From Gammaproteobacteria bacterium (GTDB taxonomy: Bacteria > Pseudomonadota > Gammaproteobacteria > Tethybacterales > G965206325), in the NCBI GenBank assembly GCA_965206325.1, contig OZ242208.1, positions 678,326 to 742,325 on the forward strand: DNA of 64,000 nt. The letters run 5' to 3'. Below the pieces are notes generated by a model that saw only the letters and a program-made list of their open reading frames with translations, searched no databases and was not told where the DNA came from. Shown here piece by piece: positions 2,313 through 20,240 of this stretch. Position 1 is the first letter of the stretch; every line of letters begins with the position of its first letter. The position numbers were made by a program, and so were the translations under genes.

Positions 2313-3572
2313 ATGAGCGTCGCCGTTACGACCGCCGACGGCAAGCCGCTTAAGGTTTCACTCGCTCGTGCGCAGCGGCGGCTGAAGATTCGGGCGTTGC
2401 TGCTGGTCGCGCCGCTGCTGATTTTTGTCTTCGTTTCTTTTTTATTTCCGATTGCGGGAATGCTGTGGCGCAGCGTGGATAACGATATCGTCGCCGAATT
2501 GCTGCCTAAGTCGTTGCCGCTGATTTTGCGGTGGGAAGATTCCGCCGATGCGCTTCCGCCGGAGGAAATTTTTGCGGCGATGGCGGCCGACATTCAAGCG
2601 GGGGCGAAAACTAAAACCATCAACCGACTCGGCCAGCGGCTTAATTACGAATCTTCGGGGATGTCGTCCTTATTTCGCAAATCCGCCCGGAATCTGCGAA
2701 AAGGCGAATTGCCGCCGCTCGGCGGCGCCCAAGACGCTCTTATTAAAATGGATAAAAAATGGGGCGAGGCGGAAACTTGGCGTCTTATTAAAATCTTCAG
2801 CGGCAAATACACCGCCGGATACTACGCCGCCGCCGTGGACTCGGAGATTAATTCGGACGGCGAAATTTCGTCCCTGCCGCCGGAAGAAAGCATTTACCTT
2901 AAACTTTTCTGGCGGACGCTTTTGCTTTCGGGGACGATTACGCTTTTGACTCTGCTGCTTGGCTTTCCCATTGCTTTTCTGCTGGCGTCTTTGCCGACGC
3001 GCATTTCTAATTTGCTTTTGATTCTGGTTCTTCTGCCGTTTTGGACTTCGCTTCTGGTGCGCACGACTTCTTGGATTGTCCTTCTGCAGCAGCAGGGGGT
3101 CATCAACGATTTTCTGGTTTTCATCGGACTTATCGGCGATGACGGAAGATTGGCGATGATTCACAACGCCACCGGCACAGTCATTGCGATGACTCATATT
3201 CTGCTGCCGTTTATGGTTCTGCCTTTGTATTCGGTGATGAAAACCATATCGCCGAGTTATGTCCGGGCCGCAAGGTCGCTGGGGGCGAATTCCATGACGG
3301 CATTCTGGCGGGTGTATTTTCCGGGGACGATTCCCGGAATCGGGGCGGGGGCGATCTTGGTTTTTATTTTGGCGATTGGCTACTACATTACGCCGGAATT
3401 AGTCGGCGGCACTTCGGGGACATTCATTTCCAACCGGATTGCATATCATGTATCGTCTTCTCTTAATTGGGGATTGGCGGCGTCGCTGGGGGTGATTCTG
3501 CTGCTTGTCGTCCTTTTGATGTATTATCTCTACGATAAAATCGTGGGGATTGACAATATGAAATTGGGCTGA
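2313..3572 (+). CDS. ABC transporter permease (PotB-like, long N-terminal extension)
   Basis: Multiple TM segments. EAA-loop-like motif ARSLGANSMTAFWRVYFPGTIPG typical of binding-protein-dependent permeases. Confidence 0.75.
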   Translation: MSVAVTTADGKPLKVSLARAQRRLKIRALLLVAPLLIFVFVSFLFPIAGMLWRSVDNDIVAELLPKSLPLILRWEDSADALPPEEIFAAMAADIQAGAKTKTINRLGQRLNYESSGMSSLFRKSARNLRKGELPPLGGAQDALIKMDKKWGEAETWRLIKIFSGKYTAGYYAAAVDSEINSDGEISSLPPEESIYLKLFWRTLLLSGTITLLTLLLGFPIAFLLASLPTRISNLLLILVLLPFWTSLLVRTTSWIVLLQQQGVINDFLVFIGLIGDDGRLAMIHNATGTVIAMTHILLPFMVLPLYSVMKTISPSYVRAARSLGANSMTAFWRVYFPGTIPGIGAGAILVFILAIGYYITPELVGGTSGTFISNRIAYHVSSSLNWGLAASLGVILLLVVLLMYYLYDKIVGIDNMKLG

Positions 3573-7585: not shown

Positions 7586-8725
7586 TTAGCGCGCCGAATC
7601 GCCGTCGTTATTTTCCGGCGCAACGCCGAGAATTTTTTCAATCTTGGCGAGATGACGGCGGCTGGCGTCGTCGCAGCCCGCTTCCTCCGCAATGATATGC
7701 AGCCGACGGTAAAAATCCCTCCGTCCGGCAAGCGGGAGTCCGCGCAGATTTTTCAAGGCGGCTTGTTCTTTTTTTTCGGCGGCGGCGATGCCGTTTTCGC
7801 GGACGAATTTAATCGCCTTGTGCGCATCGCTTTCGCCGACCAGCCGGACTAAAGATTTCTGCTCCGATTTGGAAAGCACATTGTCGGATGCAAAAAGCAT
7901 AAGCAGGCACCATACTCGCGCCTGCGAAACGGCTTTTTCGGAATGTGCTCCAAAGCCGCCCTTTTCGGCGGCGGCGAAATCCCGGAGAATGCGATCGTCC
8001 AATTCCGCCGCCGACAGCGGGGCTTCTTTTTTTTCGCCCCGCCAGCGGTAAAACGGCTCGCTCATCGCAAACCAATGCAGCGCGCGGGCGCGCAGCGGTA
8101 GAATCGGATGCGTGCCGAAAACGGCGGATTCATCGCCCGCCGCCATCACTTCCTTCGCCTGCCGCAGATAAGATGCGGCATCAAGATTCAAATGACGGGA
8201 AGACAGACCGCTTGCAGTTTTTACAATCGCCGCAAAGGCGTCCTTTTCCAACGGCGCACAGACAAATCCCGCTCGGTCCGCGCTGATTTCCGCCGCCCGC
8301 TGCGAATGCAAAAGCGCCAGCGCGCCAAGCCCCCGCGCCGACCCGGCGGGCGGACGGCGGTGATGTCCGAAAAGATAATGGCCGATTTCGTGGCCGATGA
8401 CAAAGCGCAATTCATCCGCGCTCATCAAATCAACCAGACCGGAAGAAACGACGACGGCAAAGAGAACTTCGCCGCCCAGCGGAACGCACCACGCCTGCGG
8501 AATTGGGCCGCTTCTTGCATAGAATTCAATCGTGTGCGCGGCGCGCAGATTTTTCGCGACCGCCCGCATCGCCGAATGCAATTCGGGAAGCAGCGGCTCC
8601 GTTATGCGAACATCATGCGAAAGTAGGCGGATTCGCTCCCTGCGTCCGCGCGCGGAAAAAGATGCGCCGGAAGATTCAAATTCATCCGGCGAATCTTCGG
8701 CATAGCGCAGCGATTCAATTTCCAT
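7586..8725 (-). CDS. M48/HtpX-like Zn metallopeptidase domain protein with TerB-like C-terminal region
   Basis: HExxH motif (VIGHEIGHYLFGHH) and downstream HPILPLRARAL. The C-terminal helical region looks TerB-like. Last gene of the atypical Hsp70 operon. Confidence 0.55.
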   Translation of the reverse strand: MEIESLRYAEDSPDEFESSGASFSARGRRERIRLLSHDVRITEPLLPELHSAMRAVAKNLRAAHTIEFYARSGPIPQAWCVPLGGEVLFAVVVSSGLVDLMSADELRFVIGHEIGHYLFGHHRRPPAGSARGLGALALLHSQRAAEISADRAGFVCAPLEKDAFAAIVKTASGLSSRHLNLDAASYLRQAKEVMAAGDESAVFGTHPILPLRARALHWFAMSEPFYRWRGEKKEAPLSAAELDDRILRDFAAAEKGGFGAHSEKAVSQARVWCLLMLFASDNVLSKSEQKSLVRLVGESDAHKAIKFVRENGIAAAEKKEQAALKNLRGLPLAGRRDFYRRLHIIAEEAGCDDASRRHLAKIEKILGVAPENNDGDSAR

Positions 8726-9851
8726 CGCGGCAGTGTTTTTTGCGCGCTTCGGCGATTAAATTGCACATCAATTTCGCCCGCTCCCGCACTTTGGAATCGT
8801 GGTGAGTGACGCGGGAATTCCACTTTCCGTATTCGCGCAGAAGATGTTTTTTAATTTTTTCGGGGCTCATTCCCGGCGTAATCCCAATTTCGTCTTCCAA
8901 GTTAATTTCATCCTCGCTCGGCGGCGGCAAGTGACGGTCGGTTAGCGAGCGAAACCGATCTATGTCTATCCCCAATTCCGAGGCGATTATTTTGAGGATT
9001 CGCATTTCCGACTTGTGCGCTTCGTCGTCAATGCCCGCGACTTTCACGCACAACTCAAGAATGCCGAAGCAAGCGGACTCGCTTAAAACTTCGCGCGCGC
9101 GGCGGGCGAGTGCAGCGGCTTGCGAATCATCCGGCGGCGAAATTGCCGCATCCATAAAAATTTGCCAAAGTCGCTCGTAGGCGTCATCGCGTTCATCTTC
9201 ATTACTGGTCGCCGAAAATTTTCGAATCCAAGTGCGAATCAATCCGCGTTCATTCGGATGCACTTCGCCGTCGGCCCCGGCAATCGCCACCGCCAATTGA
9301 ACTTTCAGCCGCCCAAATTCCTGATGCTCCCCCAAATAACCCGGCTCTTTGCTTTCTACTAAAAAGGATTTGCATTTTGCGGAAGTGATGATCATTTCAC
9401 CGGTTGTCACTATCGCACGAAATTCGAGAGTCCGCCTGCCCGTGCGAGGAAAGCGCAAAGCGCGAATCGGAATCGGCGGAAGCCGTGCATCCTCCCTGAA
9501 AGAGACCGCGCGATGCAGGGAAATTTGCGGCGAAGTAGTGAACGAAAAAATCGGCGAATCCTCCGCCTGTAATTGCGCAATTTCACAAAGCACCGGCTCG
9601 CCGTCAGCGTCGTCAGTGATGTCCGAAAGGCGCAAATGTATGCGATGCGCACAGTGGTCATGAGGAAAAAACAGCGACCCCGCAATGCGGGGAACGAAGC
9701 AATCAAACTCCTTAAAGACCTCGCGCGAAACGCTGAGCGAAAACGGCTTAACCCCCGGCGCATCGCCGCCGTTTTGCCCGCCGCCGCCCGCCGACTTGTA
9801 AATCAGCCAGCTGACCCCCCAAACGATTAGAAAACCGATAAGCCATTCCAC
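8715..9851 (-). CDS. DjlA-like membrane co-chaperone candidate: N-terminal TM helix, two TerB-like repeats, degenerate C-terminal J-like domain
   Basis: N-terminal MEWLIGFLIVWGVSWLI is a TM segment. AIAGADGEVHPNERGLI and VKVAGIDDEAHKSEMRIL resemble DjlA/TerB repeats. The C-terminal GMSPEKIKKHLLREYGKWNSRVTHHD resembles a J domain with HPD replaced by HHD. Confidence 0.45.
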   Translation of the reverse strand: MEWLIGFLIVWGVSWLIYKSAGGGGQNGGDAPGVKPFSLSVSREVFKEFDCFVPRIAGSLFFPHDHCAHRIHLRLSDITDDADGEPVLCEIAQLQAEDSPIFSFTTSPQISLHRAVSFREDARLPPIPIRALRFPRTGRRTLEFRAIVTTGEMIITSAKCKSFLVESKEPGYLGEHQEFGRLKVQLAVAIAGADGEVHPNERGLIRTWIRKFSATSNEDERDDAYERLWQIFMDAAISPPDDSQAAALARRAREVLSESACFGILELCVKVAGIDDEAHKSEMRILKIIASELGIDIDRFRSLTDRHLPPPSEDEINLEDEIGITPGMSPEKIKKHLLREYGKWNSRVTHHDSKVRERAKLMCNLIAEARKKHCRDGN

Positions 9852-9866
9852 AGCGATTCTCCCGAT

Positions 9867-11420
9867 TTATTCAATCGTCAAGTCGTCCAAGTCGTGCTTG
9901 CGGGCGGCGTTGGCATCGGCATCGCGCTCGCCTTTTAAGTTTAGGCGGATTTCATGCGATTTGCCGCTTTCCACATCTTCAAAGCGGCAGTGCAGAACTT
10001 GGCTTTCGTCGCAGGTATAGGTGATTTTAACTGGCTGTCCCGCCGGACGATTAGGGGGCAATTCCAAATCTTTCTCGTAGATCGGCTTCATATATTCGGG
10101 GTCTTTCTCCTCCCCTTGAGTCACATTGCACTTGATGGTGCGCTGTCCATCCGCAATGGTGTAAAAGGTATCTTCGGCAGTCGTCGGCAGCGGGGTGTTT
10201 TTTTCAATAATGATGACATTTGTTCGCTTCATCGTTTCGCCGTCTACGGTAATCGTGCCATAACTGTCATTCACCACATCGGTCACTTTGCGCGATTGCA
10301 ATTCCCGACGCGCCGATGCCGACACCGATTCCGGCCGCTCGCGCACGGCGGCGAGTCCGGCGCTAATCGCCGCGCCCATTGCCACCGCTTCGTCGGGATT
10401 AATTCCCGTCACCGGCTTCTTGCCGAACATTCGCTCCACCGAGGCGACAACGGCGGGAATGCGCGTGCTGCCGCCGACCAGCAGAATTTCATCGATCGCG
10501 TCCGGTTTTAAATTCGCGTCGTCCATCGCTTTTTCCACCAGCAATTCAGTTCTGGCGATGTAAGTGGAAATTGCCTCTTCAAAGCGAGCGCGCGGAAAAT
10601 CCAAGCGGATTCTTTCGCCGCCTGCCCGGTTTTCGAGCAGTACCGGGTATTTATCCTTTTTGGACAGGGCGCGCTTAACTTTCTCCGATTCCTGCTCCCA
10701 TTTGTAGCGCGGATTTTCGCCTTCGTCATTGTCGGTCGCGCACAATTCCTCGCCGGTTTTGGTGCGATATTCCTCCTCAAATATCTTCAGCAATTCGCGG
10801 TCAAAATCGCAGCCGCCAAGATGGGCGTCGCCCTGCGAAGTGATGATTTTAATGTCGCGTCCGCGCGCTTCCAAAATCGTCACATCAAAGGTGCCGCCGC
10901 CCAAATCAAAAACCAGATAGCAGCCGTTTAACGCATGCTCGGTCGCGTAGGCGATAGCCGCCGCCGTCGGTTCGTTGACGATATGAATCACATCCAGCCC
11001 GGCGAGCCGTCCGGCTTCCATCGTCGCCTTGCGGTCCTCCTCCTTGAAATAAGCGGGCACCGAAATGGCGACAGGTCCAACGCCTCCCTTGTGTTCAACG
11101 CCGCCGCTGACCGTTTTCTTGAGAATCAGCGACGACAAATCGGCGGGCGAATACTCTTTGCCGCCAATGATTTGGCGATAGGCGAGATTGTGCATCTCCC
11201 GCTTGATTTCCTTTACTAGGCGGTCTTCGGGATATCTGCCCGCGGCGTCTTTCGCCTCTCCGCCGATGGAGACGCGTTCATCTCCTTCAAATAAAATTAG
11301 CGACGGCGTAATGCGTTCGCCGTCGGTGTTCGGCACGATTTCGGGCTTGCCGAGTTCGTTCAAAATCGCCGCCGCCGAATTGGTGGTGCCGAGGTCAATG
11401 CCGGTGATGTGCTTTGCCAT
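9867..11420 (-). CDS. Hsp70-family ATPase lacking the C-terminal lid (HscC-like, 517 aa)
   Basis: Hsp70 NBD signatures GIDLGTTNSAAA and DLGGGTFDVTIL. A beta-sandwich SBD is present but no helical lid. Confidence 0.85.
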   Translation of the reverse strand: MAKHITGIDLGTTNSAAAILNELGKPEIVPNTDGERITPSLILFEGDERVSIGGEAKDAAGRYPEDRLVKEIKREMHNLAYRQIIGGKEYSPADLSSLILKKTVSGGVEHKGGVGPVAISVPAYFKEEDRKATMEAGRLAGLDVIHIVNEPTAAAIAYATEHALNGCYLVFDLGGGTFDVTILEARGRDIKIITSQGDAHLGGCDFDRELLKIFEEEYRTKTGEELCATDNDEGENPRYKWEQESEKVKRALSKKDKYPVLLENRAGGERIRLDFPRARFEEAISTYIARTELLVEKAMDDANLKPDAIDEILLVGGSTRIPAVVASVERMFGKKPVTGINPDEAVAMGAAISAGLAAVRERPESVSASARRELQSRKVTDVVNDSYGTITVDGETMKRTNVIIIEKNTPLPTTAEDTFYTIADGQRTIKCNVTQGEEKDPEYMKPIYEKDLELPPNRPAGQPVKITYTCDESQVLHCRFEDVESGKSHEIRLNLKGERDADANAARKHDLDDLTIE

Positions 11421-12086
11421 TTATTTTTTCTCCGTTTTGCCGCTGTCGGTGGACTTCGCTTCTTCCGCCTGCGGCGGCGAAAAGTGCCAAACCTTTACGC
11501 GCGCCTTTCGCCAGACAATTCCGTCGTCGGCATCGTCGCGTTTGTGCAGGACTCCACTTCTGGTGACTTCGCAAATTTTTCCGTCATCTTCCTGCCGCTG
11601 CGTTTCTTTGGCGCTCGCGACTTCCGCGCGACGGCGCCAATCGTCAAAGGTGTCGCCGACTTTCGGACGAATCCGTTCGCTGTCAAATTTTTCCAGCAGA
11701 AATTCGGCGAGTTGCCGGACATCAGCATACCACGCTTTTTCTTCGCCGGGTTTCGCGCGATTATTTTCGCGCTCTTCAAGATAATCAAGGAAGTCGGCCA
11801 CCTCGCCGAGCACCGCCTTGTGCTTGGATAAATCGTATCCTTCGCGCCATCGCTGCAATTCTTTTTCCTTTCCGGCGACAAAATCGCGCACGCCGCGCAG
11901 CTGCTCATCAATTTCGCCGATGCCTTTGTGCAGGGTGGATTCCAGCGCGGCAATTTTTTCCGCCTGCGCCGCAAATTGCTCGCGGATTAGCGACTCCAAT
12001 CTGCGATAATCGCCGCCGGATTCGTCCGCTTGCGGGGCCGAATCAGCGTCCGGCGAATCGTTGGGCTGTTTTTCGTCGTCCGTCAT
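11421..12086 (-). CDS. GrpE-like nucleotide exchange factor candidate
   Basis: Acidic disordered N-terminus, a long coiled coil, and a C-terminal beta-rich segment (KICEVTRSGVLHKRDDADDGIVWRKARVKV) that parallels the GrpE C-terminus. Its stop abuts the Hsp70 start. Confidence 0.5.
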   Translation of the reverse strand: MTDDEKQPNDSPDADSAPQADESGGDYRRLESLIREQFAAQAEKIAALESTLHKGIGEIDEQLRGVRDFVAGKEKELQRWREGYDLSKHKAVLGEVADFLDYLEERENNRAKPGEEKAWYADVRQLAEFLLEKFDSERIRPKVGDTFDDWRRRAEVASAKETQRQEDDGKICEVTRSGVLHKRDDADDGIVWRKARVKVWHFSPPQAEEAKSTDSGKTEKK

Positions 12087-12217
12087 AGCGGTCGGAGTAT
12101 ACCTTTTCCCTCAAACACATCGGAGCGGAGCGCAATTTCGCTGCAGAATCGGGCGGAAAACGCCGATGGGCGATTTGTTGCTTATTTCATACATCGCGAA
12201 AAACCCCCGCCGAATTG

Positions 12218-12246
12218 TTGCGTTTTCTAAAAAATCGGCGTATAAT
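12218..12246 (+). promoter_or_regulatory. near-consensus sigma70-type promoter (TTGCGT-17-TATAAT) with no downstream plus-strand CDS
   Basis: TTGCGT at 12218-12223, a 17-nt spacer, TATAAT at 12241-12246. A T7 run preceded by a weak hairpin lies near 12302-12352. Confidence 0.35.
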
Positions 12247-12426
12247 AATCAGCATCCTCGCAGATAAAGCGGCTGTCCGTTGGATGTCCGCCTGATGCGA
12301 TGGCAAGCAATACAGGTTCTTGGTTATCCTTTTCTTGCCGTTGTGCTTTTTTTGTGGCGCAGACATGGGAACTCCCTCCCTCATGCTTCTGCGCCGCCAT
12401 TTTCCGCGAAAGAATTGCGGACGATT

Positions 12427-13482
12427 TCAATGCGTTAATTCTCCCGCCGCATATTTTTCCGCCATTGCATCCAAAGGAAGAGGCGTTATTTTTTCCGCCT
12501 GACCCGCCGTGCCGAAGGCGTGGAATCGCTCTTCGCACACTTCGCGCATTTTGGCGATTGCCGGCTTGTTAAATTTGCGCGGATCAAATTCGCGCGGATT
12601 CTCAGCGGCGACTTTGCGATACTGCCCGATAATCGCCATTCGGCAGTCGGTGTCTATGTTGATTTTGCGCACGCCGTGCTTGATGCCGACGACAATTTCC
12701 TCCACCGGCACGCCCCAAGTTTGCGGCATTTCGCCGCCGTGCCGATTAATAATCTCTTGCAATTCCTGCGGCACCGATGAAGATCCATGCATCACCAAAT
12801 GCAGCGACGGCATTTTGCCGTTGATTTGCCTGACGACATCAATCGCCAGAATCGCCCCGTCCGGCTTTCGGCTGAATTTATACGCTCCGTGCGATGTGCC
12901 GATGGCGACCGCCAAAGCGTCCACCTGAGTCGCGCGGACAAATTCAGCGGCTTGGGCGGGATCGGTCAATAGCATTTCTCGGCTTAATTTTCCTTCTGCG
13001 CCGTGTCCGTCTTCGGCTTCGCCCTCGCCGGTTTCCAGCGAGCCGAGGCAGCCCAATTCGCCTTCCACCGAAACGCCGACCAGATGCGCCGTCTCGGCGA
13101 CCTGCCTTGTCACGCGCATATTGTATTCGTAGTCGGCGGGTGTTTTGGCGTCTTCCATAAGCGAGCCGTCCATCATTACGCTGGTGAATCCGTTGGCGAT
13201 TGCCGACAGGCAAGTGCGCGGATTATTGCCGTGATCCTGATGCATGCAGACGGGAATGCGCGGATGCATTTCCACCGCCGCCTGCATTAATCGTCGCAGA
13301 AAAACATCGCCGGCGTATTGGCGGGCGCCGCGGCTCGCCTGAATAATAACGGGCGCGGAAGCGGAATCGGCGGCTTGCATAATCGCCTGAATCTGCTCCA
13401 TATTATTGACATTAAACGCCGGCACGCCGTAGTTGTTTTCGGCGGCGTGATCCAGCAATTGCCGCAGCGAAATGAGGGCCAT
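12427..13482 (-). CDS. fba: fructose-bisphosphate aldolase class II
   Basis: [30 protein letters not shown] and the rest match class II FBA over full length. Start placed at MALIS. Confidence 0.9.
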
Positions 13483-13615: not shown

Positions 13616-14182
13616 ATGGCGAGCGACGATTTTCTCTCAACAGAAGTGACTGAATTCCGCGCCCAGAACGCGAGAGATGCCCGCCGCTTTCTGGCGTCTT
13701 TTATCAGCGATGGCGCGATGGCGGGGGACTTGCTTGCCTTGGACTACGAAGAGGCAGCGGTACTTGTTCACGACTCGATGCGCCGGAAAATTGGTGGCTT
13801 GCCGATGGGTTGTTTTCTCTTGTCGACCCGCCTCGCGCCCTCAAGCGGTTCGGACGCGGCCGGACCGAATCCGAACGATGAAGACACTGCCCTGATTTTG
13901 TTGCGTGTTGTCGGCCGCGCGCAATTGCCCAATCGTGCCGACACGGATAAATACCGTCTAGACGCGGCCCTGCGCGCTATCGACAGCCCCGAAAACTGGG
14001 ACACTGAAAACAAAACCGACCAGTTCACGCTCAACCGACTCCGGCACGCAGGCGTTCGTTGCGCTGTGCTAGGCACTTTTCGCATGGAGTTGGAGCAACT
14101 GAAAGATAATTGGCGTCTGGGGTTTGGCGCCGACATTTCCAATTTCTACTCCGGCCAGGGGATGAAGGTTTACGGCGGATAG
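13616..14182 (+). pseudogene. 5' fragment of a HerA-like ATPase gene interrupted by an IS30-family element
   Basis: 188-aa ORF whose stop codon TAG is supplied by the first 3 nt of the IS inverted repeat. Removing the IS under two of three boundary models fuses it in frame to ORF 15183-16784. Confidence 0.55.
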
Positions 14183-15174
14183 TCATACTCAGTGCAACAC
14201 TGAATGGAGGTTGCGTTGGGCAAACGATTAACATTGGAAAAGCGACAGTTGATTGAGGGGCATCTGTCGGACGAGAGGTCGCTGCGGTGGATAGCGAGGG
14301 CTTTGGGCGTATCGGCATCGACCATCAGCCGCGAAGTGCGGCGCAATGGTGGGTGCGATGGTTATGATGCGGTGAGTGCGCAAGTGCGCTCGGCGGTAAT
14401 GCGGGTGGGGATTGGGCCGCCGTTGGTGTCGGGGATGGCGTGGTCGGCGGCGCAAGCGGAGTTGGCGAAGCGGCATAGTCCGGAGCAGATTGCGGGGCAT
14501 CGGTCGGATATTAGCGCGTCAACCATTCGCCGTCGGATAGCGGTGGAGCGGCTGCAGGGCGGAATGTCGCATCGGCATTTGCGGCGACGCGGCAAGCAGC
14601 GATTGTCGGCGGCGGCGCGCGCATTATGCCGCTGCAACAATATTCCGCATCGGATTCATTATGGACACCGCCCATTGGCGGCTGACGCGCGCAGCGAGAA
14701 TGGTCATTGGGAAATGGATACCATGTGGGATATCGGCACGCATGGTCGCGCTGGCGCCCTTGTCTTAACAGACCGCAAAAGCCGCCTGACTTGTCTGGCA
14801 GCGTTGCCGAAACGCACCGCCCGCGCCGTTGCGCAAGCCGCTGTCACTCTGCTGAAGCCTCACCCGTGCCACTCCATCACCGCCGACAACGGCGGCGAAT
14901 TCGCCAAGCATCATCTTATTACCCAAGCCCTCGGCGCGCCGGTGTTCTTTACCGATCCGGGCAGTCCCTGGCAGCGCGGCACCTGCGAAAACACCATCAG
15001 CCTAATCCGCGACCTCACCCCCAAACAGCGGCTCGGCTCAATGAACCCCGCCGCAATCCGCCGTATCGCCAATGCCATCAATCATCGACCAATGAAACTT
15101 CATCACTGGCAAACCCGATTCATGGCATCATCGCAACCATAACTTACCGTTGCACTGAGTATGACTATCCACAT
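14174..15174 (+). mobile_element. IS30-family insertion sequence, copy 1 (about 1.0 kb)
   Basis: Terminal inverted repeats GGCGGATAGTCATACTCAGTGCAAC and GTTGCACTGAGTATGACTATCCACAT (19-bp perfect core). It is 100% identical to the segment 18169-19169. Possible 2-bp AC target duplication. Confidence 0.85.
14204..15142 (+). CDS. IS30-family DDE transposase
   Basis: 312 aa with an N-terminal HTH and a DDE region (HWEMDTMW...ITADNGGEF...PGSPWQRGTCENTISLIRD) typical of IS30 transposases. Confidence 0.85.
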   Translation: MEVALGKRLTLEKRQLIEGHLSDERSLRWIARALGVSASTISREVRRNGGCDGYDAVSAQVRSAVMRVGIGPPLVSGMAWSAAQAELAKRHSPEQIAGHRSDISASTIRRRIAVERLQGGMSHRHLRRRGKQRLSAAARALCRCNNIPHRIHYGHRPLAADARSENGHWEMDTMWDIGTHGRAGALVLTDRKSRLTCLAALPKRTARAVAQAAVTLLKPHPCHSITADNGGEFAKHHLITQALGAPVFFTDPGSPWQRGTCENTISLIRDLTPKQRLGSMNPAAIRRIANAINHRPMKLHHWQTRFMASSQP

Positions 15175-15182
15175 ACAAACCG

Positions 15183-16784
15183 ATGGGGGGCGCTCTGTCG
15201 CGCATCGTCAACTTTACCAAACCAGCAGGCGATCCGCATCCGCTTTCCGGCAAGTCGGTGCCGGTCGGGCGTGTGCGCTACTGTTCCAGCGAAATCGCCG
15301 TCAACGCGAAACGCGACAATGTTCCCGTGACGATGGATCCCACCGACCTGTTGGCCCGGCGCACCGCGCTGTTTGGCATGAGCCGCAGCGGAAAATCCAA
15401 TACTATCAAGACCGTGTCGGCCGCCATTTTTATGTTACGCGATCACGACCCCAATTTGGGCCGCATTGGGCAGTTGATTTTTGACACTAATGGTGAGTAC
15501 TGCAACGACAATCCGCAGGATAACGGCTGCTTACGAAATGTCTGGCGCGAGACCCGAAAAACTGCTCAAGGCGATGTTGTCACTTACGGTTTGCATCCGC
15601 ACCCCAATGATCTAAATCGTCGACTGGTGAAAGTCAATTTCTTCGGAGAAACGCCGACGGCTTGGTCGGACCGGGAAAGCGTTGCGTCGGCGATGGACAT
15701 GTTGCTTGCCGGTAAGGCCATTATTGACGAGAGTATGCCGACGGAGGGTGCGCACTATGTCAAAAATTTCCTCAACACCGCGATGGATCTCCCGCCAGAA
15801 TGGGACAAGGGGACTCAAATACGCTATCAGCGATGCGTCATCGTCTATCGCGCTCTACTGTTCGGAGCGGGGTTTGCACCGCCACAAAATATGGGACAGG
15901 CAAACATTGCCGGGTTGTTTGGAAAAAATATCCGGGAATCCCTTGATGCTGCTGGCTATGAAGCGACGGCTGCAACATTCGAGAAACATCAGGTTGAGTG
16001 GACGTCTCTGGTTGCATCGCTGAAAGATCTGCGGAAATTTTTGTCGTCCGACGCAGGAATGAATTTCGACAAGCTCTGCTCCGAAAGCTCGCGTGGTAAG
16101 AGCTGGAGCGACGATAGGCTTGTGGGGTTGCTTTCGCTTCTCGAGCGCCCACAGGGGATCGCACGGTTGCGCGGGCTGAAAACGCAGCACAGCCCAGATG
16201 TGTCGGTTGACTACGCGGTTAAGATTGTCGACGATCTTGTCGCAGGACGGCTTGTCATCATGGACCAGTCGACCGGTGCTCCGGATTTGATTCAACGAGC
16301 CTCGGAGCGCATTATGTGGGAATTATTTAACCGCCAAAAGGAAACGTTTATCTCGCCGGCCCGAGATAAAAACGATGAGTTGGTTCTAGACGAAAACAAC
16401 AACATCAAACCGCCACCCGATGTTATCGTTTACGCAGAGGAGGCGCACAATCTCTTGCCCGCAAAGAATGCTGATCTTTCTTCGGTATGGGCGCGCATCG
16501 TCAAAGAGGGATCCAAGTTCCACATCGGCATGGTGTATTCCACTCAAGAGCCGAGCTCCATCCTGTCCAACATCCTCAAGAACACCGACAATTGGTTTGT
16601 GGCTCATCTCAACAATCAGGATGAGATGCGCGAGCTCAGGAAGTATTACGACTTCGAGATGTTCGCCGGACAGATTTTGAAAGTGCCTGATACCGGATTC
16701 GTGCGGATGCGCTGCCTGTCTAATCCTTATATCGTCCCAATTCAGGTCGACCGATTCGCCATGAAACTCGAGGAGGGGAAATAG
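15183..16784 (+). CDS. HerA/FtsK-superfamily ATPase (DUF87-like), 3' portion of the IS-split gene
   Basis: Walker A GMSRSGKSNT and Walker B VIVYAEEAHNLLP (hhhhEEAH type typical of HerA/DUF87). Lower GC and different codon usage than flanking core genes. Confidence 0.6.
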   Translation: MGGALSRIVNFTKPAGDPHPLSGKSVPVGRVRYCSSEIAVNAKRDNVPVTMDPTDLLARRTALFGMSRSGKSNTIKTVSAAIFMLRDHDPNLGRIGQLIFDTNGEYCNDNPQDNGCLRNVWRETRKTAQGDVVTYGLHPHPNDLNRRLVKVNFFGETPTAWSDRESVASAMDMLLAGKAIIDESMPTEGAHYVKNFLNTAMDLPPEWDKGTQIRYQRCVIVYRALLFGAGFAPPQNMGQANIAGLFGKNIRESLDAAGYEATAATFEKHQVEWTSLVASLKDLRKFLSSDAGMNFDKLCSESSRGKSWSDDRLVGLLSLLERPQGIARLRGLKTQHSPDVSVDYAVKIVDDLVAGRLVIMDQSTGAPDLIQRASERIMWELFNRQKETFISPARDKNDELVLDENNNIKPPPDVIVYAEEAHNLLPAKNADLSSVWARIVKEGSKFHIGMVYSTQEPSSILSNILKNTDNWFVAHLNNQDEMRELRKYYDFEMFAGQILKVPDTGFVRMRCLSNPYIVPIQVDRFAMKLEEGK

Positions 16785-16788
16785 TCCG

Positions 16789-18117
16789 ATGCCTTACGAA
16801 AGGGAGGTCGCCAGCGGCGACAGTTTGATTTGGCTGAAAAACAGCGAGGTTTTGCGGGAGTTCAAAGGAATCATCCAGCGTCGAGAAGAAATCCCTCAAT
16901 TTCCCCCGCCGCTGCTGACGGATATTAAGCGCATCGGTTGGTGGCCGCGGCGAGTCATCGCAGTGGACGGCTCCAACATCGTCCAGCGCGTCAACAACGG
17001 CTTTCCGGGGGCCGAGGCGGGGTTGATGATGGTTTCAGTCGTCTCCATCAAATTAGAGATGCTGCGCGCTATCGCACCCGGGACGATTCCCAGCCCGGCG
17101 ATTTTTCACAATATGGAAAACGCCTGCACCTTGGAAGCCGCCGTGCCGGGCATTGGCGTGGTGCGCCGCGATGTCAAAAACGACTCGCCGAAAGAATTCT
17201 TTCGGCACTGCGTCTACGAAGTGCTGTCCGGCACTGTTGCCGGAAACCATGAAAGTTTGCTAGAAACGCTACGCGCTATCGATGAAAAACGGAAAATTGA
17301 AATTCCATGTCCCATCGATGGGTGCAGCGAACACTTTGTCCGCCAGCAAGGGAAATACTGCTGCAACTGCCAAAGACATGAAACAATGTTTGAGACGGAT
17401 GCCCTGCGATTGCATCAATACTTTCAAGACATCGGCGGTAGCGGCGAAGCGCACGGACGACTACGGGATGTATTGGAGCTTTTAGTGCTACTGAATATTC
17501 TGCGGTTCTTCGCGGAAAAGGAGCCGGCGTATCTCGCCGACTGTGCCTTTGTATTGGACGGTCCCCTCGCTGTGTTCGGGGCTCCGGCCTCCATTTTGCG
17601 GTCGGTCCGCAACGAGTTTGTGCGCTTGAATGAAAAGGCCCGGTCATTTAACAAGCAGGATATTGTCGTATTCGGCATTGAAAAATCCGGTCGCTTTTTC
17701 GAGCATTGGGAGGAAATTGACTGGGACGATGAAAAAGGGCCGCGTCGTCGGTTTCCTACCGGCACTGTCCTTGCACTGGATAATGATTACATTTCCCGAA
17801 ATATCGTAGCATCCAGCGCCAAAAGTAAACCCTACGGCGAGGACACTTATTACGGCAGAAAGGTTTTTTACAAAACGCAGAAAGAAGAACATGTCGTTCT
17901 TAACACCGCTATGTTGAATACGACCGCACAGGATTTCAACCGGAATGACATGAAATGTTATCCACGCTTGGGTGACATTCTGGATGTGATGGATCAACTT
18001 GCGACCCATCTTTACCGCGACGGTTTCATGCCGTTGACGCGCGCACACGCGCACGCCGCCATTCCGCTGAAACGCGGAGCTGACATCATCAAGAGTTTGT
18101 TGGAGGACAGCGCGTGA
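16789..18117 (+). CDS. NurA-like nuclease candidate partner of the HerA-like ATPase
   Basis: Begins 5 nt after the ATPase stop. N-terminal VIAVDGSNI matches the NurA (I/V)DGS catalytic motif. Internal Cys cluster CPIDGC...CCNC is zinc-ribbon-like. Confidence 0.4.
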   Translation: MPYEREVASGDSLIWLKNSEVLREFKGIIQRREEIPQFPPPLLTDIKRIGWWPRRVIAVDGSNIVQRVNNGFPGAEAGLMMVSVVSIKLEMLRAIAPGTIPSPAIFHNMENACTLEAAVPGIGVVRRDVKNDSPKEFFRHCVYEVLSGTVAGNHESLLETLRAIDEKRKIEIPCPIDGCSEHFVRQQGKYCCNCQRHETMFETDALRLHQYFQDIGGSGEAHGRLRDVLELLVLLNILRFFAEKEPAYLADCAFVLDGPLAVFGAPASILRSVRNEFVRLNEKARSFNKQDIVVFGIEKSGRFFEHWEEIDWDDEKGPRRRFPTGTVLALDNDYISRNIVASSAKSKPYGEDTYYGRKVFYKTQKEEHVVLNTAMLNTTAQDFNRNDMKCYPRLGDILDVMDQLATHLYRDGFMPLTRAHAHAAIPLKRGADIIKSLLEDSA

Positions 18118-18168
18118 CCAAACTCGCATGGCCATACAGCACAGCCGAGGGGCGTTGGGCGGGGTTTG

Positions 18169-19169
18169 GGCGGATAGTCATACTCAGTGCAACACTGAAT
18201 GGAGGTTGCGTTGGGCAAACGATTAACATTGGAAAAGCGACAGTTGATTGAGGGGCATCTGTCGGACGAGAGGTCGCTGCGGTGGATAGCGAGGGCTTTG
18301 GGCGTATCGGCATCGACCATCAGCCGCGAAGTGCGGCGCAATGGTGGGTGCGATGGTTATGATGCGGTGAGTGCGCAAGTGCGCTCGGCGGTAATGCGGG
18401 TGGGGATTGGGCCGCCGTTGGTGTCGGGGATGGCGTGGTCGGCGGCGCAAGCGGAGTTGGCGAAGCGGCATAGTCCGGAGCAGATTGCGGGGCATCGGTC
18501 GGATATTAGCGCGTCAACCATTCGCCGTCGGATAGCGGTGGAGCGGCTGCAGGGCGGAATGTCGCATCGGCATTTGCGGCGACGCGGCAAGCAGCGATTG
18601 TCGGCGGCGGCGCGCGCATTATGCCGCTGCAACAATATTCCGCATCGGATTCATTATGGACACCGCCCATTGGCGGCTGACGCGCGCAGCGAGAATGGTC
18701 ATTGGGAAATGGATACCATGTGGGATATCGGCACGCATGGTCGCGCTGGCGCCCTTGTCTTAACAGACCGCAAAAGCCGCCTGACTTGTCTGGCAGCGTT
18801 GCCGAAACGCACCGCCCGCGCCGTTGCGCAAGCCGCTGTCACTCTGCTGAAGCCTCACCCGTGCCACTCCATCACCGCCGACAACGGCGGCGAATTCGCC
18901 AAGCATCATCTTATTACCCAAGCCCTCGGCGCGCCGGTGTTCTTTACCGATCCGGGCAGTCCCTGGCAGCGCGGCACCTGCGAAAACACCATCAGCCTAA
19001 TCCGCGACCTCACCCCCAAACAGCGGCTCGGCTCAATGAACCCCGCCGCAATCCGCCGTATCGCCAATGCCATCAATCATCGACCAATGAAACTTCATCA
19101 CTGGCAAACCCGATTCATGGCATCATCGCAACCATAACTTACCGTTGCACTGAGTATGACTATCCACAT
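18169..19169 (+). mobile_element. IS30-family insertion sequence, copy 2 (identical to copy 1)
   Basis: Identical to 14174-15174 at a constant offset of 3995 nt, including both inverted repeats. Confidence 0.85.
18199..19137 (+). CDS. IS30-family DDE transposase (second copy)
   Basis: Translation is identical to 14204-15142. Confidence 0.85.
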   Translation: MEVALGKRLTLEKRQLIEGHLSDERSLRWIARALGVSASTISREVRRNGGCDGYDAVSAQVRSAVMRVGIGPPLVSGMAWSAAQAELAKRHSPEQIAGHRSDISASTIRRRIAVERLQGGMSHRHLRRRGKQRLSAAARALCRCNNIPHRIHYGHRPLAADARSENGHWEMDTMWDIGTHGRAGALVLTDRKSRLTCLAALPKRTARAVAQAAVTLLKPHPCHSITADNGGEFAKHHLITQALGAPVFFTDPGSPWQRGTCENTISLIRDLTPKQRLGSMNPAAIRRIANAINHRPMKLHHWQTRFMASSQP

Positions 19170-19184
19170 GGTCCCTATTACGCG

Positions 19185-20240
19185 ATGTTCCCTGTAGGGT
19201 TTGCCAAGCAGATTGTCGAAACCATGTGTCCCCTTGACGGCGGTGTTTTGGATCCGTTCTGCGGACGAGGCACCGCACCGTTTGTGGCGCAGGCAACCGG
19301 AAGATTCGCACTTGGCTTAGATATCAACCCGGTAGCGTGGGTTTTCGCCATAGTGAAAACTCATCCCGAACCGAATGCCGAACGAGTCATCCACCGGTTG
19401 GACGATGTCCGCCGAGCGTCAAGGGTGCGCGACGCTAAGCACTGCAATGAATTCCAGCGGTGGGCGTGGTCATCTGATGTCCTCCGCTTTCTGAAAACCG
19501 CGCGGCGCGTCTTGGATTGGGAGAACGATAAGGTTGACCGAACTCTGATGGGCTTCATTCTGACGCATGTCCACGCCAAGATTGGTGATGGCATCAGCAA
19601 CCAAATGCACAAATCGCGTGCGCTGGGGCCGGATTATGCAGTCCGCTGGTGGAAAGAACGCAATATGCCTCCCCCAGACATAAACCCAATCATCTTTTTG
19701 CGTAACCGCATTTTGTGGCGCTACTGTCATGGCGTGGTACGCAATCGCGCGCCGGAAATAATTTTAGAGCGCGCTGAAAAAGTGCTTCCTCGCCGCCGCA
19801 CCGCGCGATTTGATCTGTTGCTGACTTCACCGCCGTATTTCAATGTCACCGACTATCGACAGGATAGCTGGATTCGCCTGTGGATGCTGAAAAAAGGGCC
19901 AGCCTTACCGAATTGGAAGTCAGACCTTAAGTTTGCGCGGCGCAGTGCTTACCAACCCATGCTGGAAAATGTCTTTTCCAGTGCGGTTCACCTAATGAAA
20001 CCGGGTTGTGCAATTTGGGTGCGAACCAGTGCGCGCAAATTCACGAGGGAAGCGACCATTGCAGCTATTCATGCATCCTGGCCTCGGAGAAAACTTTATT
20101 TGCGCCTAGATTTTCCGAAAATCCCCACACAAACGGCACAATTCGGGCACACTTCGTCCAAGCCGACCGAAATGGATCTGCTCATCGCGCGCCAAGGTAT
20201 GCCGCCCCCGAGGGGGTTTACGCCGTTTCGTTCGGATTGA
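19185..20240 (+). CDS. DNA methyltransferase, N4-cytosine/N6-adenine class (motif I N-terminal, SPPY motif IV)
   Basis: Motif I VLDPFCGRGTAPF near the N-terminus and motif IV LLLTSPPYFNVTDY. The frame is open upstream into the IS, so the first Met (19185) after the IS end was taken as start. The native 5' end may have been altered. Confidence 0.6.
   Translation: MFPVGFAKQIVETMCPLDGGVLDPFCGRGTAPFVAQATGRFALGLDINPVAWVFAIVKTHPEPNAERVIHRLDDVRRASRVRDAKHCNEFQRWAWSSDVLRFLKTARRVLDWENDKVDRTLMGFILTHVHAKIGDGISNQMHKSRALGPDYAVRWWKERNMPPPDINPIIFLRNRILWRYCHGVVRNRAPEIILERAEKVLPRRRTARFDLLLTSPPYFNVTDYRQDSWIRLWMLKKGPALPNWKSDLKFARRSAYQPMLENVFSSAVHLMKPGCAIWVRTSARKFTREATIAAIHASWPRRKLYLRLDFPKIPTQTAQFGHTSSKPTEMDLLIARQGMPPPRGFTPFRSD

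Follow-up and report, generated by a model that had tools for sequence, protein, structure and literature searches.

Are two neighbouring open reading frames (ORFs) on either side of an insertion sequence (IS) two genes, or the remains of one gene that the IS has cut? The question is raised by a stretch of 64,000 nucleotides, hereafter called the window, from the genome of a gammaproteobacterium of the order Tethybacterales (assembly GCA_965206325.1, contig OZ242208.1, positions 678,326 to 742,325), in which an ORF of 188 aa (13616–14182) and an ORF of 533 aa with a DUF87/HerA assignment (15183–16784) flank an IS30-family element. We find that these ORFs are the halves of a single 721-aa HerA-like gene cut between codons 186 and 187, and that a second copy of the element has split a DNA methyltransferase gene of the same operon, which appears to be a restriction–modification (RM)-type defence module built like TdpABC. 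We give this reading as a whole a probability of about 93%. Positions are counted from the first letter of the window, and all genes and IS copies of the operon lie on the forward strand.

The 5′ fragment of the herA-like gene (13616–14173) comprises codons 1–186 and equals residues 1–186 of an intact sister-strain protein, P0122; the 3′ fragment (15177–16784) comprises codons 187–721 and the stop codon, as seen from its DUF87 match, from homologue alignments and from an AlphaFold2 model. The 188-aa ORF ends in ...GMKVYGG, and its last two codons, GGC GGA (G187 and G188), are derived from the IS, as is its TAG stop codon (14180–14182), which lies within the left inverted repeat as bases 7–9 of the element. 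The left repeat would thus be translated as Gly-Gly-stop to give the 188-aa 'ORF', leaving the remainder of the gene as the 533-aa 'ORF'. An earlier note on this DNA had recognised this C-terminus as an insertion artefact and had correctly traced the TAG to the terminal repeat, but its placement of the TAG as the first triplet of that repeat does not hold. The annotated ATG of the 533-aa ORF is the internal Met189, situated 10 nt beyond the end of the IS, and no recognisable ribosome-binding site or promoter-like site was seen upstream of it; a promoter and terminator scan likewise returned nothing over chance, and no outward IS promoter able to drive the 3′ fragment.

Excision of 14174–15176 (1003 bp) restores an uninterrupted frame of 721 codons that reads ...GQGMKVY/KPMGGALSRIV... 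across the junction. When this conceptual fusion was used as a protein query, more than 100 proteins of ~700–750 aa were found to cover both parts contiguously, with coverage of 94–100% and identity of 51–71%. Neither an alignment of 22 sequences nor one of 66 shows a gap at the junction motif SGQGMKVYKPMG, which is conserved: K187 does not vary, and conservation reaches 90% or more at Y186 and P188. Two sister-strain contigs (L001 and L002), which stem from one metagenome and are 98–99.9% identical to the window, carry empty sites, and L002 (operon at 8001–12620) encodes the intact 721-aa P0122 at the same chromosomal position, in the gene order class II aldolase, herA, nurA, methyltransferase, GATase and argS. 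P0122 differs from the fusion at three residues, all in the 3′ part, and shares one 90%-identity cluster with both window fragments. The sister gene and the spanning homologues bear out the proposal of the earlier note that an IS30 insertion had split a single HerA-like gene of ~720 aa, and the in-frame join that it had written as ...KVY-KP-MGGALSRIV... is the one obtained on removing the 1003 bp.

The N-terminal part behaves in the same way when searched by itself. Against 1.84 billion representative proteins, the 188-aa query gave 271 matches; among its 150 best alignments none reaches beyond residue 186 and no stand-alone homologue with another C-terminus was seen, while 36 of these 150 matches are proteins of at least 650 aa that align at their own N-terminus. 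The short matches inspected (P0287, P0317 and P0302) run on through KVYKP and look like fragments. A further short match, the 194-aa distant homologue P0306, stops exactly at ...NRGLKVF, the equivalent of the IS junction, and is either a contig-end fragment or a parallel disruption.

The inserted element, copy 1 (14174–15173), is 1000 bp long and is bounded by a left inverted repeat at 14174–14198 and a right inverted repeat at 15149–15173, symmetric repeats of 25 bp each that match at 23 of 25 positions. It is flanked by a target-site duplication (TSD) of the sequence TAC, the left copy of which (14171–14173) is the codon for Y186 and the right copy of which lies at 15174–15176. Positions 14174–15174 are 100% identical to 18169–19169 over 1001 bp, and this second fully identical stretch in the window argues for a repeated mobile element rather than a chance resemblance. 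Using the transposase protein from its TTG start at 14216 as the query, we found further copies in sister genomes; the ends of the element, GGCGGATAG...TATCCACA, are shared by all seven of these copies with the same transposase, making nine copies in all. The empty sites of L001 and L002 contain a single TAC (...GGTTTACAAACCG...) and read ...GATGAAGGTTTACAAACCGATGG..., where the window reads ...GGTTTAC–IS–TACAAACCG.... Since empty sites, further copies and terminal repeats agree, the element is 1000 bp long with a TAC duplication.

Other boundaries had been considered in the earlier note. An element of 1001 bp with an AC duplication removes the right bases and gives the correct product, but misplaces the boundary, as the other IS copies end in ...CCACA. 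Removal at the edges of the perfect inverted repeats (988 bp) is also in frame and yields KVYGGSTYKPMGG, a product matched by no homologue; a 994-bp model, which we tried in addition, is likewise in frame, and the residues that these two models add (GGSTY or GT) are absent from all homologues. Removal of 1000 bp with no duplication, which had been expected to put the two parts out of frame, keeps them in frame as well.

The transposase gene (14216–15142) encodes 308 aa from a TTG preceded by GGAGG; an alternative ATG at 14204 would give 312 aa, and public assemblies record the 308-aa form. Its single ORF contains the Pfam domains HTH_38 (residues 6–48) and rve (residues 164–255), and it matches NCBIfam NF033563 (transpos_IS30) with 196.7 bits against a cut-off of 80 (E 6e-58), in agreement with the family first proposed. 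Elements of the IS30 family encode a transposase with a helix-turn-helix and a DDE domain, have imperfect terminal repeats, generate TSDs of 2–3 bp and prefer palindromic targets. The window element shares with IS30 and ISApl1 the helix-turn-helix and DDE (rve) transposase, imperfect repeats (here of 25 bp), the TSD length of 2–3 bp and the palindromic target preference, and at 1000 bp it stands at the small end of the family. An exact search for the IS end GGATAGTCATACTCAGTGCAAC in species-representative genomes and JGI metagenome contigs gave no match, and the IS seems confined to one uncultured lineage. The host is an uncultured bacterium with a genome of ~1.99 Mb; judged by its ArgRS, its closest named relatives (Burkholderiales and Betaproteobacteria metagenome-assembled genomes) share only ~50% identity.

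The seven sister-genome copies (L071–L077, at positions 2459–3458 of each locus) are all intergenic, and at least five copies, each intergenic, occur in one sister genome of 1.97 Mb. These copies are centred in GC-rich intergenic palindromes of the form GGGG[A/T]TT-NN-AA[A/T]CCCC, for example CGGGGATTAATCCCCG, with flanking arms that are complementary at 10–12 of 12 positions. Six of the seven have a TSD of 2 bp (TA or GC); the copy in L071 has none and may be a recombination product of two IS copies. Both insertion sites in the operon are degenerate versions of this target: the herA site is a short version of the palindrome, GGTTT-AC-AAACC, and the methyltransferase site shares only its left arm (GGCGGGGTT). 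The consensus target GGGGWTTNNAAWCCCC has no match with one mismatch or fewer in the window, which therefore offers no unoccupied strong target. That two insertions hit genes within one operon of 4.6 kb, when all seven copies elsewhere are intergenic, suggests either that the IS hopped locally or that inactivation was selected for.

The second insertion lies 3 kb downstream of the first, where an IS copy in the same orientation (18169–19168, 1000 bp) interrupts an N6_N4 methyltransferase gene after codon 18. The 5′ fragment of this gene (18114–18168) starts with a GTG that overlaps the nurA stop codon and comprises codons 1–18 and the first base of codon 19; the 3′ fragment (19171–20240) matches Pfam N6_N4_Mtase and PADLOC MTase_II, with DPFCGRGT as motif I and TSPPY as motif IV. 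The IS is flanked by the TSD TG (18167–18168 and 19169–19170), which comparison with the empty sites confirms, and removal of 1002 bp gives MTKLAWPYSTAEGRWAGF/GPYYAMFPV..., which matches the sister-strain protein and distant homologues. The repaired methyltransferase has 374 aa and differs from the L002 protein at one residue, and the repair is confirmed by six homologues. The ~2996 bp between the two IS copies show three differences from L002, all nonsynonymous and all in herA; together with the complete identity of the IS copies, this argues that the insertions are recent. Each copy has a TSD of its own, and IS-free sister strains have the same genes, so the insertions were two independent events.

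Three other accounts of these structures were weighed. It is highly improbable that the 188-aa and 533-aa ORFs are each a gene in their own right, with the IS merely in the spacer between them. Each does have an ATG and an open frame, and some matches to the N-terminal part are short, such as P0306 with its end at ...GLKVF; but more than 100 homologues are single proteins of ~720 aa in which the junction is conserved and has no gap, a single gene of 721 aa occupies the empty site in the sister strain, the shorter ORF owes its stop codon and its two final residues to the IS, and the short matches inspected continue beyond the junction. A composite transposon, made up of both IS copies and the intervening 3 kb, that brought in nurA and the 3′ part of herA deserves equally little credence: the copies are identical, directly oriented and placed on either side of the ~2996 bp, yet each has its own duplication (TAC/TAC and TG/TG), the outer flanks (TAC...TG) do not match, and in sister strains these genes keep their order and location, at 99.9% identity, with no IS. 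Nor do we think that a repeat was misplaced during long-read metagenome assembly, which is very unlikely. The relatives do come from such assemblies, some with a low coverage of 9–15x, and L001 has probable indel errors; however, all four IS junctions are clean, with TSD lengths as in other copies, duplications would not be generated by misassembly, and the split products are on record for a 1.99-Mb contig.

What, then, did the interrupted genes encode? An AlphaFold2 model of the repaired HerA, built from the 66-sequence alignment (mean predicted local distance difference test score (pLDDT) 78, predicted template modelling score 0.73), shows an N-terminal domain rich in beta-strands, which lie between residues 37 and 185 (pLDDT 60–80), followed by a low-confidence linker (pLDDT below 50 at residues 178–182). 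The Walker A motif GMSRSGKS occupies residues 253–260 and the Walker B glutamates residues 607–608, and both GMSRSGKS and E607/E608 are retained across 66 homologues. A helical insertion that separates Walker A from Walker B (residues 352–541, pLDDT ~90) corresponds to the helix-bundle domain, as defined for HerA in PMC9960219. The Pfam DUF87 match scores 33.3 bits against a cut-off of 23.2. The top Protein Data Bank (PDB) fold matches of the model are all hexameric ATPases of the HerA family, with TdpA (8wfd/8wet) first; Foldseek alignments to TdpA and HerA run over the full length (~690–730 columns), a whole-chain superposition rather than one limited to a domain. TdpA is also the best solved match by sequence profile (E 3.9e-24), with VYKP aligned to TdpA residue 127.

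On this model, the insertion separates a domain in the position of a HAS-barrel from the predicted RecA-like ATPase core. The suggestion of the earlier note that the N-terminal part adds such a domain agrees with the modelled beta-rich fold and its position but finds no echo in sequence, as no profile in the Pfam and profile scans matched residues 1–175. It is through the HAS-barrel that Deinococcus radiodurans HerA interacts with NurA (PMC9960219). Because the barrel docks NurA in characterised HerA, a functional HerA–NurA complex could presumably no longer assemble after the insertion.

Variation in herA between sister strains is concentrated in one segment (15777–16256, forward strand), which encodes residues ~387–546 of the helix-bundle domain. 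Of 190 substitutions relative to L001, 157 fall into these 480 bp, where identity drops to ~64–72% in 250-bp bins against 98–99% in the flanks. L002, in contrast to L001, is 99.9% identical throughout herA and has the same allele of the hypervariable segment as the window. This pattern looks like allelic replacement by recombination, in what is the DNA-entrance domain of characterised HerA. A smaller cluster of 11 differences from L001 lies at 15177–15236. Also, the herA gene of L001 (8001–10164) is called as two ORFs of 486 and 228 aa, owing to a +1 insertion close to the site that corresponds to window position 16032; this frameshift may be a sequencing error, given a long-read assembly at 9x in which other genes of the locus are also split.

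Between the two interrupted genes lies an intact gene (16789–18117) for a NurA-like nuclease of 442 aa, so that the ATPase and modification genes of the module are both disrupted and the gene between them is not. The match of its product to Pfam NurA is weak (17.6 bits, below the cut-off of 21), homologues carry PF09376 or the NCBI name NurA, and the AlphaFold2 model (pLDDT 87) finds its best fold match in TdpB (8wfd_G). The top 11 PDB fold matches are all TdpB or NurA structures, with TdpB followed by the NurA structures of Thermococcus, Deinococcus, Sulfolobus and Pyrococcus and by TM1739. A profile of the homologues found no solved structure by sequence; the fold search alone gave matches. 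Residues D60, E155, D257, H306 and D402 are invariant in the family and are probably catalytic. At residues ~174–194, the protein has an insertion of the pattern CPxxGC...CxC, in which C174, C179 and C192 are invariant and C194 is conserved at 90% or more; it resembles the RPA70 zinc ribbon weakly (E 0.6) and could be a zinc-binding DNA-contact element.

The three genes are often found together. The order HerA (~720 aa), NurA-like protein (~440 aa) and methyltransferase (~375 aa) was the same in every context examined, and of 68 loci, among them those recovered from species-representative genomes, 52 carry the complete set. The hosts are dozens of species from many phyla and belong to Latescibacterota, Nitrospirales, Chloroflexota, Acidobacteriota, Alpha- and Gammaproteobacteria, Deinococcus and others, the proteobacteria including Bradyrhizobium japonicum, Ruegeria and Vreelandella. 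In seven more distant loci (31–34% HerA identity), another N6_N4 methyltransferase gene immediately precedes herA, which brings the loci in which a methyltransferase is linked to HerA–NurA to 59 of 68; this upstream type was seen in L042–L049 and L064. The neighbourhoods vary from genome to genome and feature integrases, transposases, toxin genes or AbiTii, and among at least 12 sister genomes of ~1.95–1.99 Mb the cassette occurs on only three contigs. Patchy occurrence, shifting mobile-gene neighbourhoods and a gene order that is nevertheless kept are together the signature of a mobile defence module.

Damaged herA genes beside intact nurA and methyltransferase genes were seen in several other genomes: the herA of L061 (6001–7132) has an internal deletion of about residues 258–548, the herA match of L056 (6001–7644) begins only at residue 178, near the position of the window junction, and those of L054 and L058 are fragmented. 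Such cases hint that, when the module decays, herA is often hit first.

Among known systems, the closest in plan is TdpABC. As described in PMC12914056 and by An et al. (Nat Chem Biol 2025, cited in PMC13223576), TdpABC joins a HerA-like and a NurA-like partner to one gene that forms phosphorothioates. Its three-gene plan of ATPase (TdpA), nuclease (TdpB) and modification gene (TdpC; PDB 8wet/8wfd) is that of the window module; among solved structures, TdpA matches the repaired HerA best in both sequence and fold, and TdpB is the best fold match to the NurA-like protein. The modification genes differ, however: TdpC is not in the window module, and the third gene is instead an N6_N4_Mtase with an S-adenosylmethionine-binding motif I and TSPPY as motif IV. 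As the module has no TdpC, we do not file it as Tdp but propose that it works like Tdp. Additionally, the window HerA is ~135 residues longer than TdpA (721 aa against 586 aa), with ~60 of the extra residues before the junction, and the hosts of TdpABC are extremophilic, whereas those of the window-type module are mesophilic and phylogenetically broad.

Other HerA-containing and methyltransferase-containing systems are less similar. The anti-phage systems that pair HerA with an effector (SIR2-HerA/Nezha and DUF4297-HerA) have in common with the window module an ATPase of the hexameric HerA family, its pairing with a putative toxic effector and a defence-island context; their effectors are SIR2 or DUF4297, while here the effector is NurA-like and a methyltransferase is present, and the 'HerA antiphage' matches in PADLOC and NCBIfam are weak, far under the cut-offs (45.6 against 800 bits). 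Classical RM systems of Types I–III share a DNA methyltransferase that adjoins the restriction part, but the window module has no recognised REase, HsdR or Res subunit, its putative restriction part being HerA and NurA. No name for a HerA–NurA–methyltransferase module was found in PADLOC or NCBIfam, which gave weak generic matches for HerA only, with none in PADLOC for the NurA-like protein; similarly, literature searches for a HerA/NurA/methyltransferase defence system found no description.

A different role for the HerA–NurA pair must be considered, namely that of a housekeeping machine for double-strand-break resection, as in archaea and Deinococcus, with an unrelated methyltransferase next to it and with insertions that disable a repair gene. 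HerA–NurA complexes have been characterised as end-resection enzymes (PMC9960219, PMC12977600), and NCBI labels some family members 'DNA double-strand break repair nuclease NurA'. The resection complexes of Sulfolobus, Thermococcus and Deinococcus (PDB 4d2i, 9x1m, 7f6d and 7wrx) also share the domain plan of the window HerA (HAS-barrel position, RecA-like core and helix-bundle insertion), an adjacent NurA and fold matches; the sequence similarity to resection HerA, in turn, is limited to the Walker B region. We nevertheless consider a housekeeping role unlikely. In contrast to the resection operon with Mre11 and Rad50, the cassette is accessory and mobile, as seen from its presence on three contigs only and from its changing surroundings, and it is linked to a methyltransferase. 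This linkage persists down to 31% HerA identity and across two methyltransferase types and gene orders, the gene lists read for six loci contain neither Mre11 nor Rad50, and among solved structures the restriction complex TdpAB, not a repair HerA, is the closest relative.

We therefore return to an RM-type module, most likely a methylation-based analogue of TdpABC whose restriction and modification halves would both be inactive in the window. In such a system, a HerA hexamer and a NurA dimer would translocate along and degrade DNA that has no methyl mark, and the methyltransferase would mark self DNA. If the module is RM-like, a cell that lost only the methyltransferase would be harmed, which makes a link between the two insertions plausible. 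A broader proposal, to which we give somewhat less than an even chance, is that these loci represent a widespread, unnamed class of RM system, in which base methylation, possibly N4-methylcytosine in view of the TSPPY motif, protects self DNA from a TdpAB-like HerA–NurA, in place of phosphorothioation; the helix bundle at the DNA entrance of HerA would read the modification status or phage inhibitors, and the paired IS insertions would record an order-dependent, safe dismantling.

Several points weigh against this picture of a split RM-type module. That the module serves in defence and senses methylation is deduced from its gene content, from the similarity of folds and from its patchy distribution, and identity to TdpA and TdpB is only 14–18%. 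Coupling to a methyltransferase is not universal, as a clade on cyanobacterial plasmids has HerA–NurA beside AbiTii and no methyltransferase. A truncated ATPase may be translated from Met189. The two TSDs in the window differ in length (3 and 2 bp), and copy 2 can equally be read as 999 bp with a duplication of TGG. On the Nostoc plasmid pANSO36C (L078), the genes run as a helix-turn-helix regulator, DUF87 and NurA, then AbiTii.

Outside the operon, upstream of the aldolase gene, four genes on the reverse strand (7586–12086) encode an M48 peptidase, a TerB-domain protein, a 517-aa ATPase of the Hsp70 family and a 221-aa protein that has no Pfam match. L002 has a Fic-domain gene in place of this four-gene block, which is a second variable and possibly conflict-related island beside the HerA module.

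The event itself is an ordinary, recent IS-mediated pseudogenisation that was annotated as two genes. For annotation, it means that the recorded 188-aa and 533-aa 'genes' should become one pseudogene, and likewise the two methyltransferase fragments. Its added value includes the recognition of a small, palindrome-targeting IS30-family element, the strict preference of which for intergenic palindromes, set against two genic insertions in one operon, provides a small natural example of the loss of a defence system. The more interesting part, however, is the conserved and apparently unnamed HerA–NurA–methyltransferase module: if methylation replaces phosphorothioation here, HerA–NurA would serve as a restriction chassis open to reuse with different self-marks.

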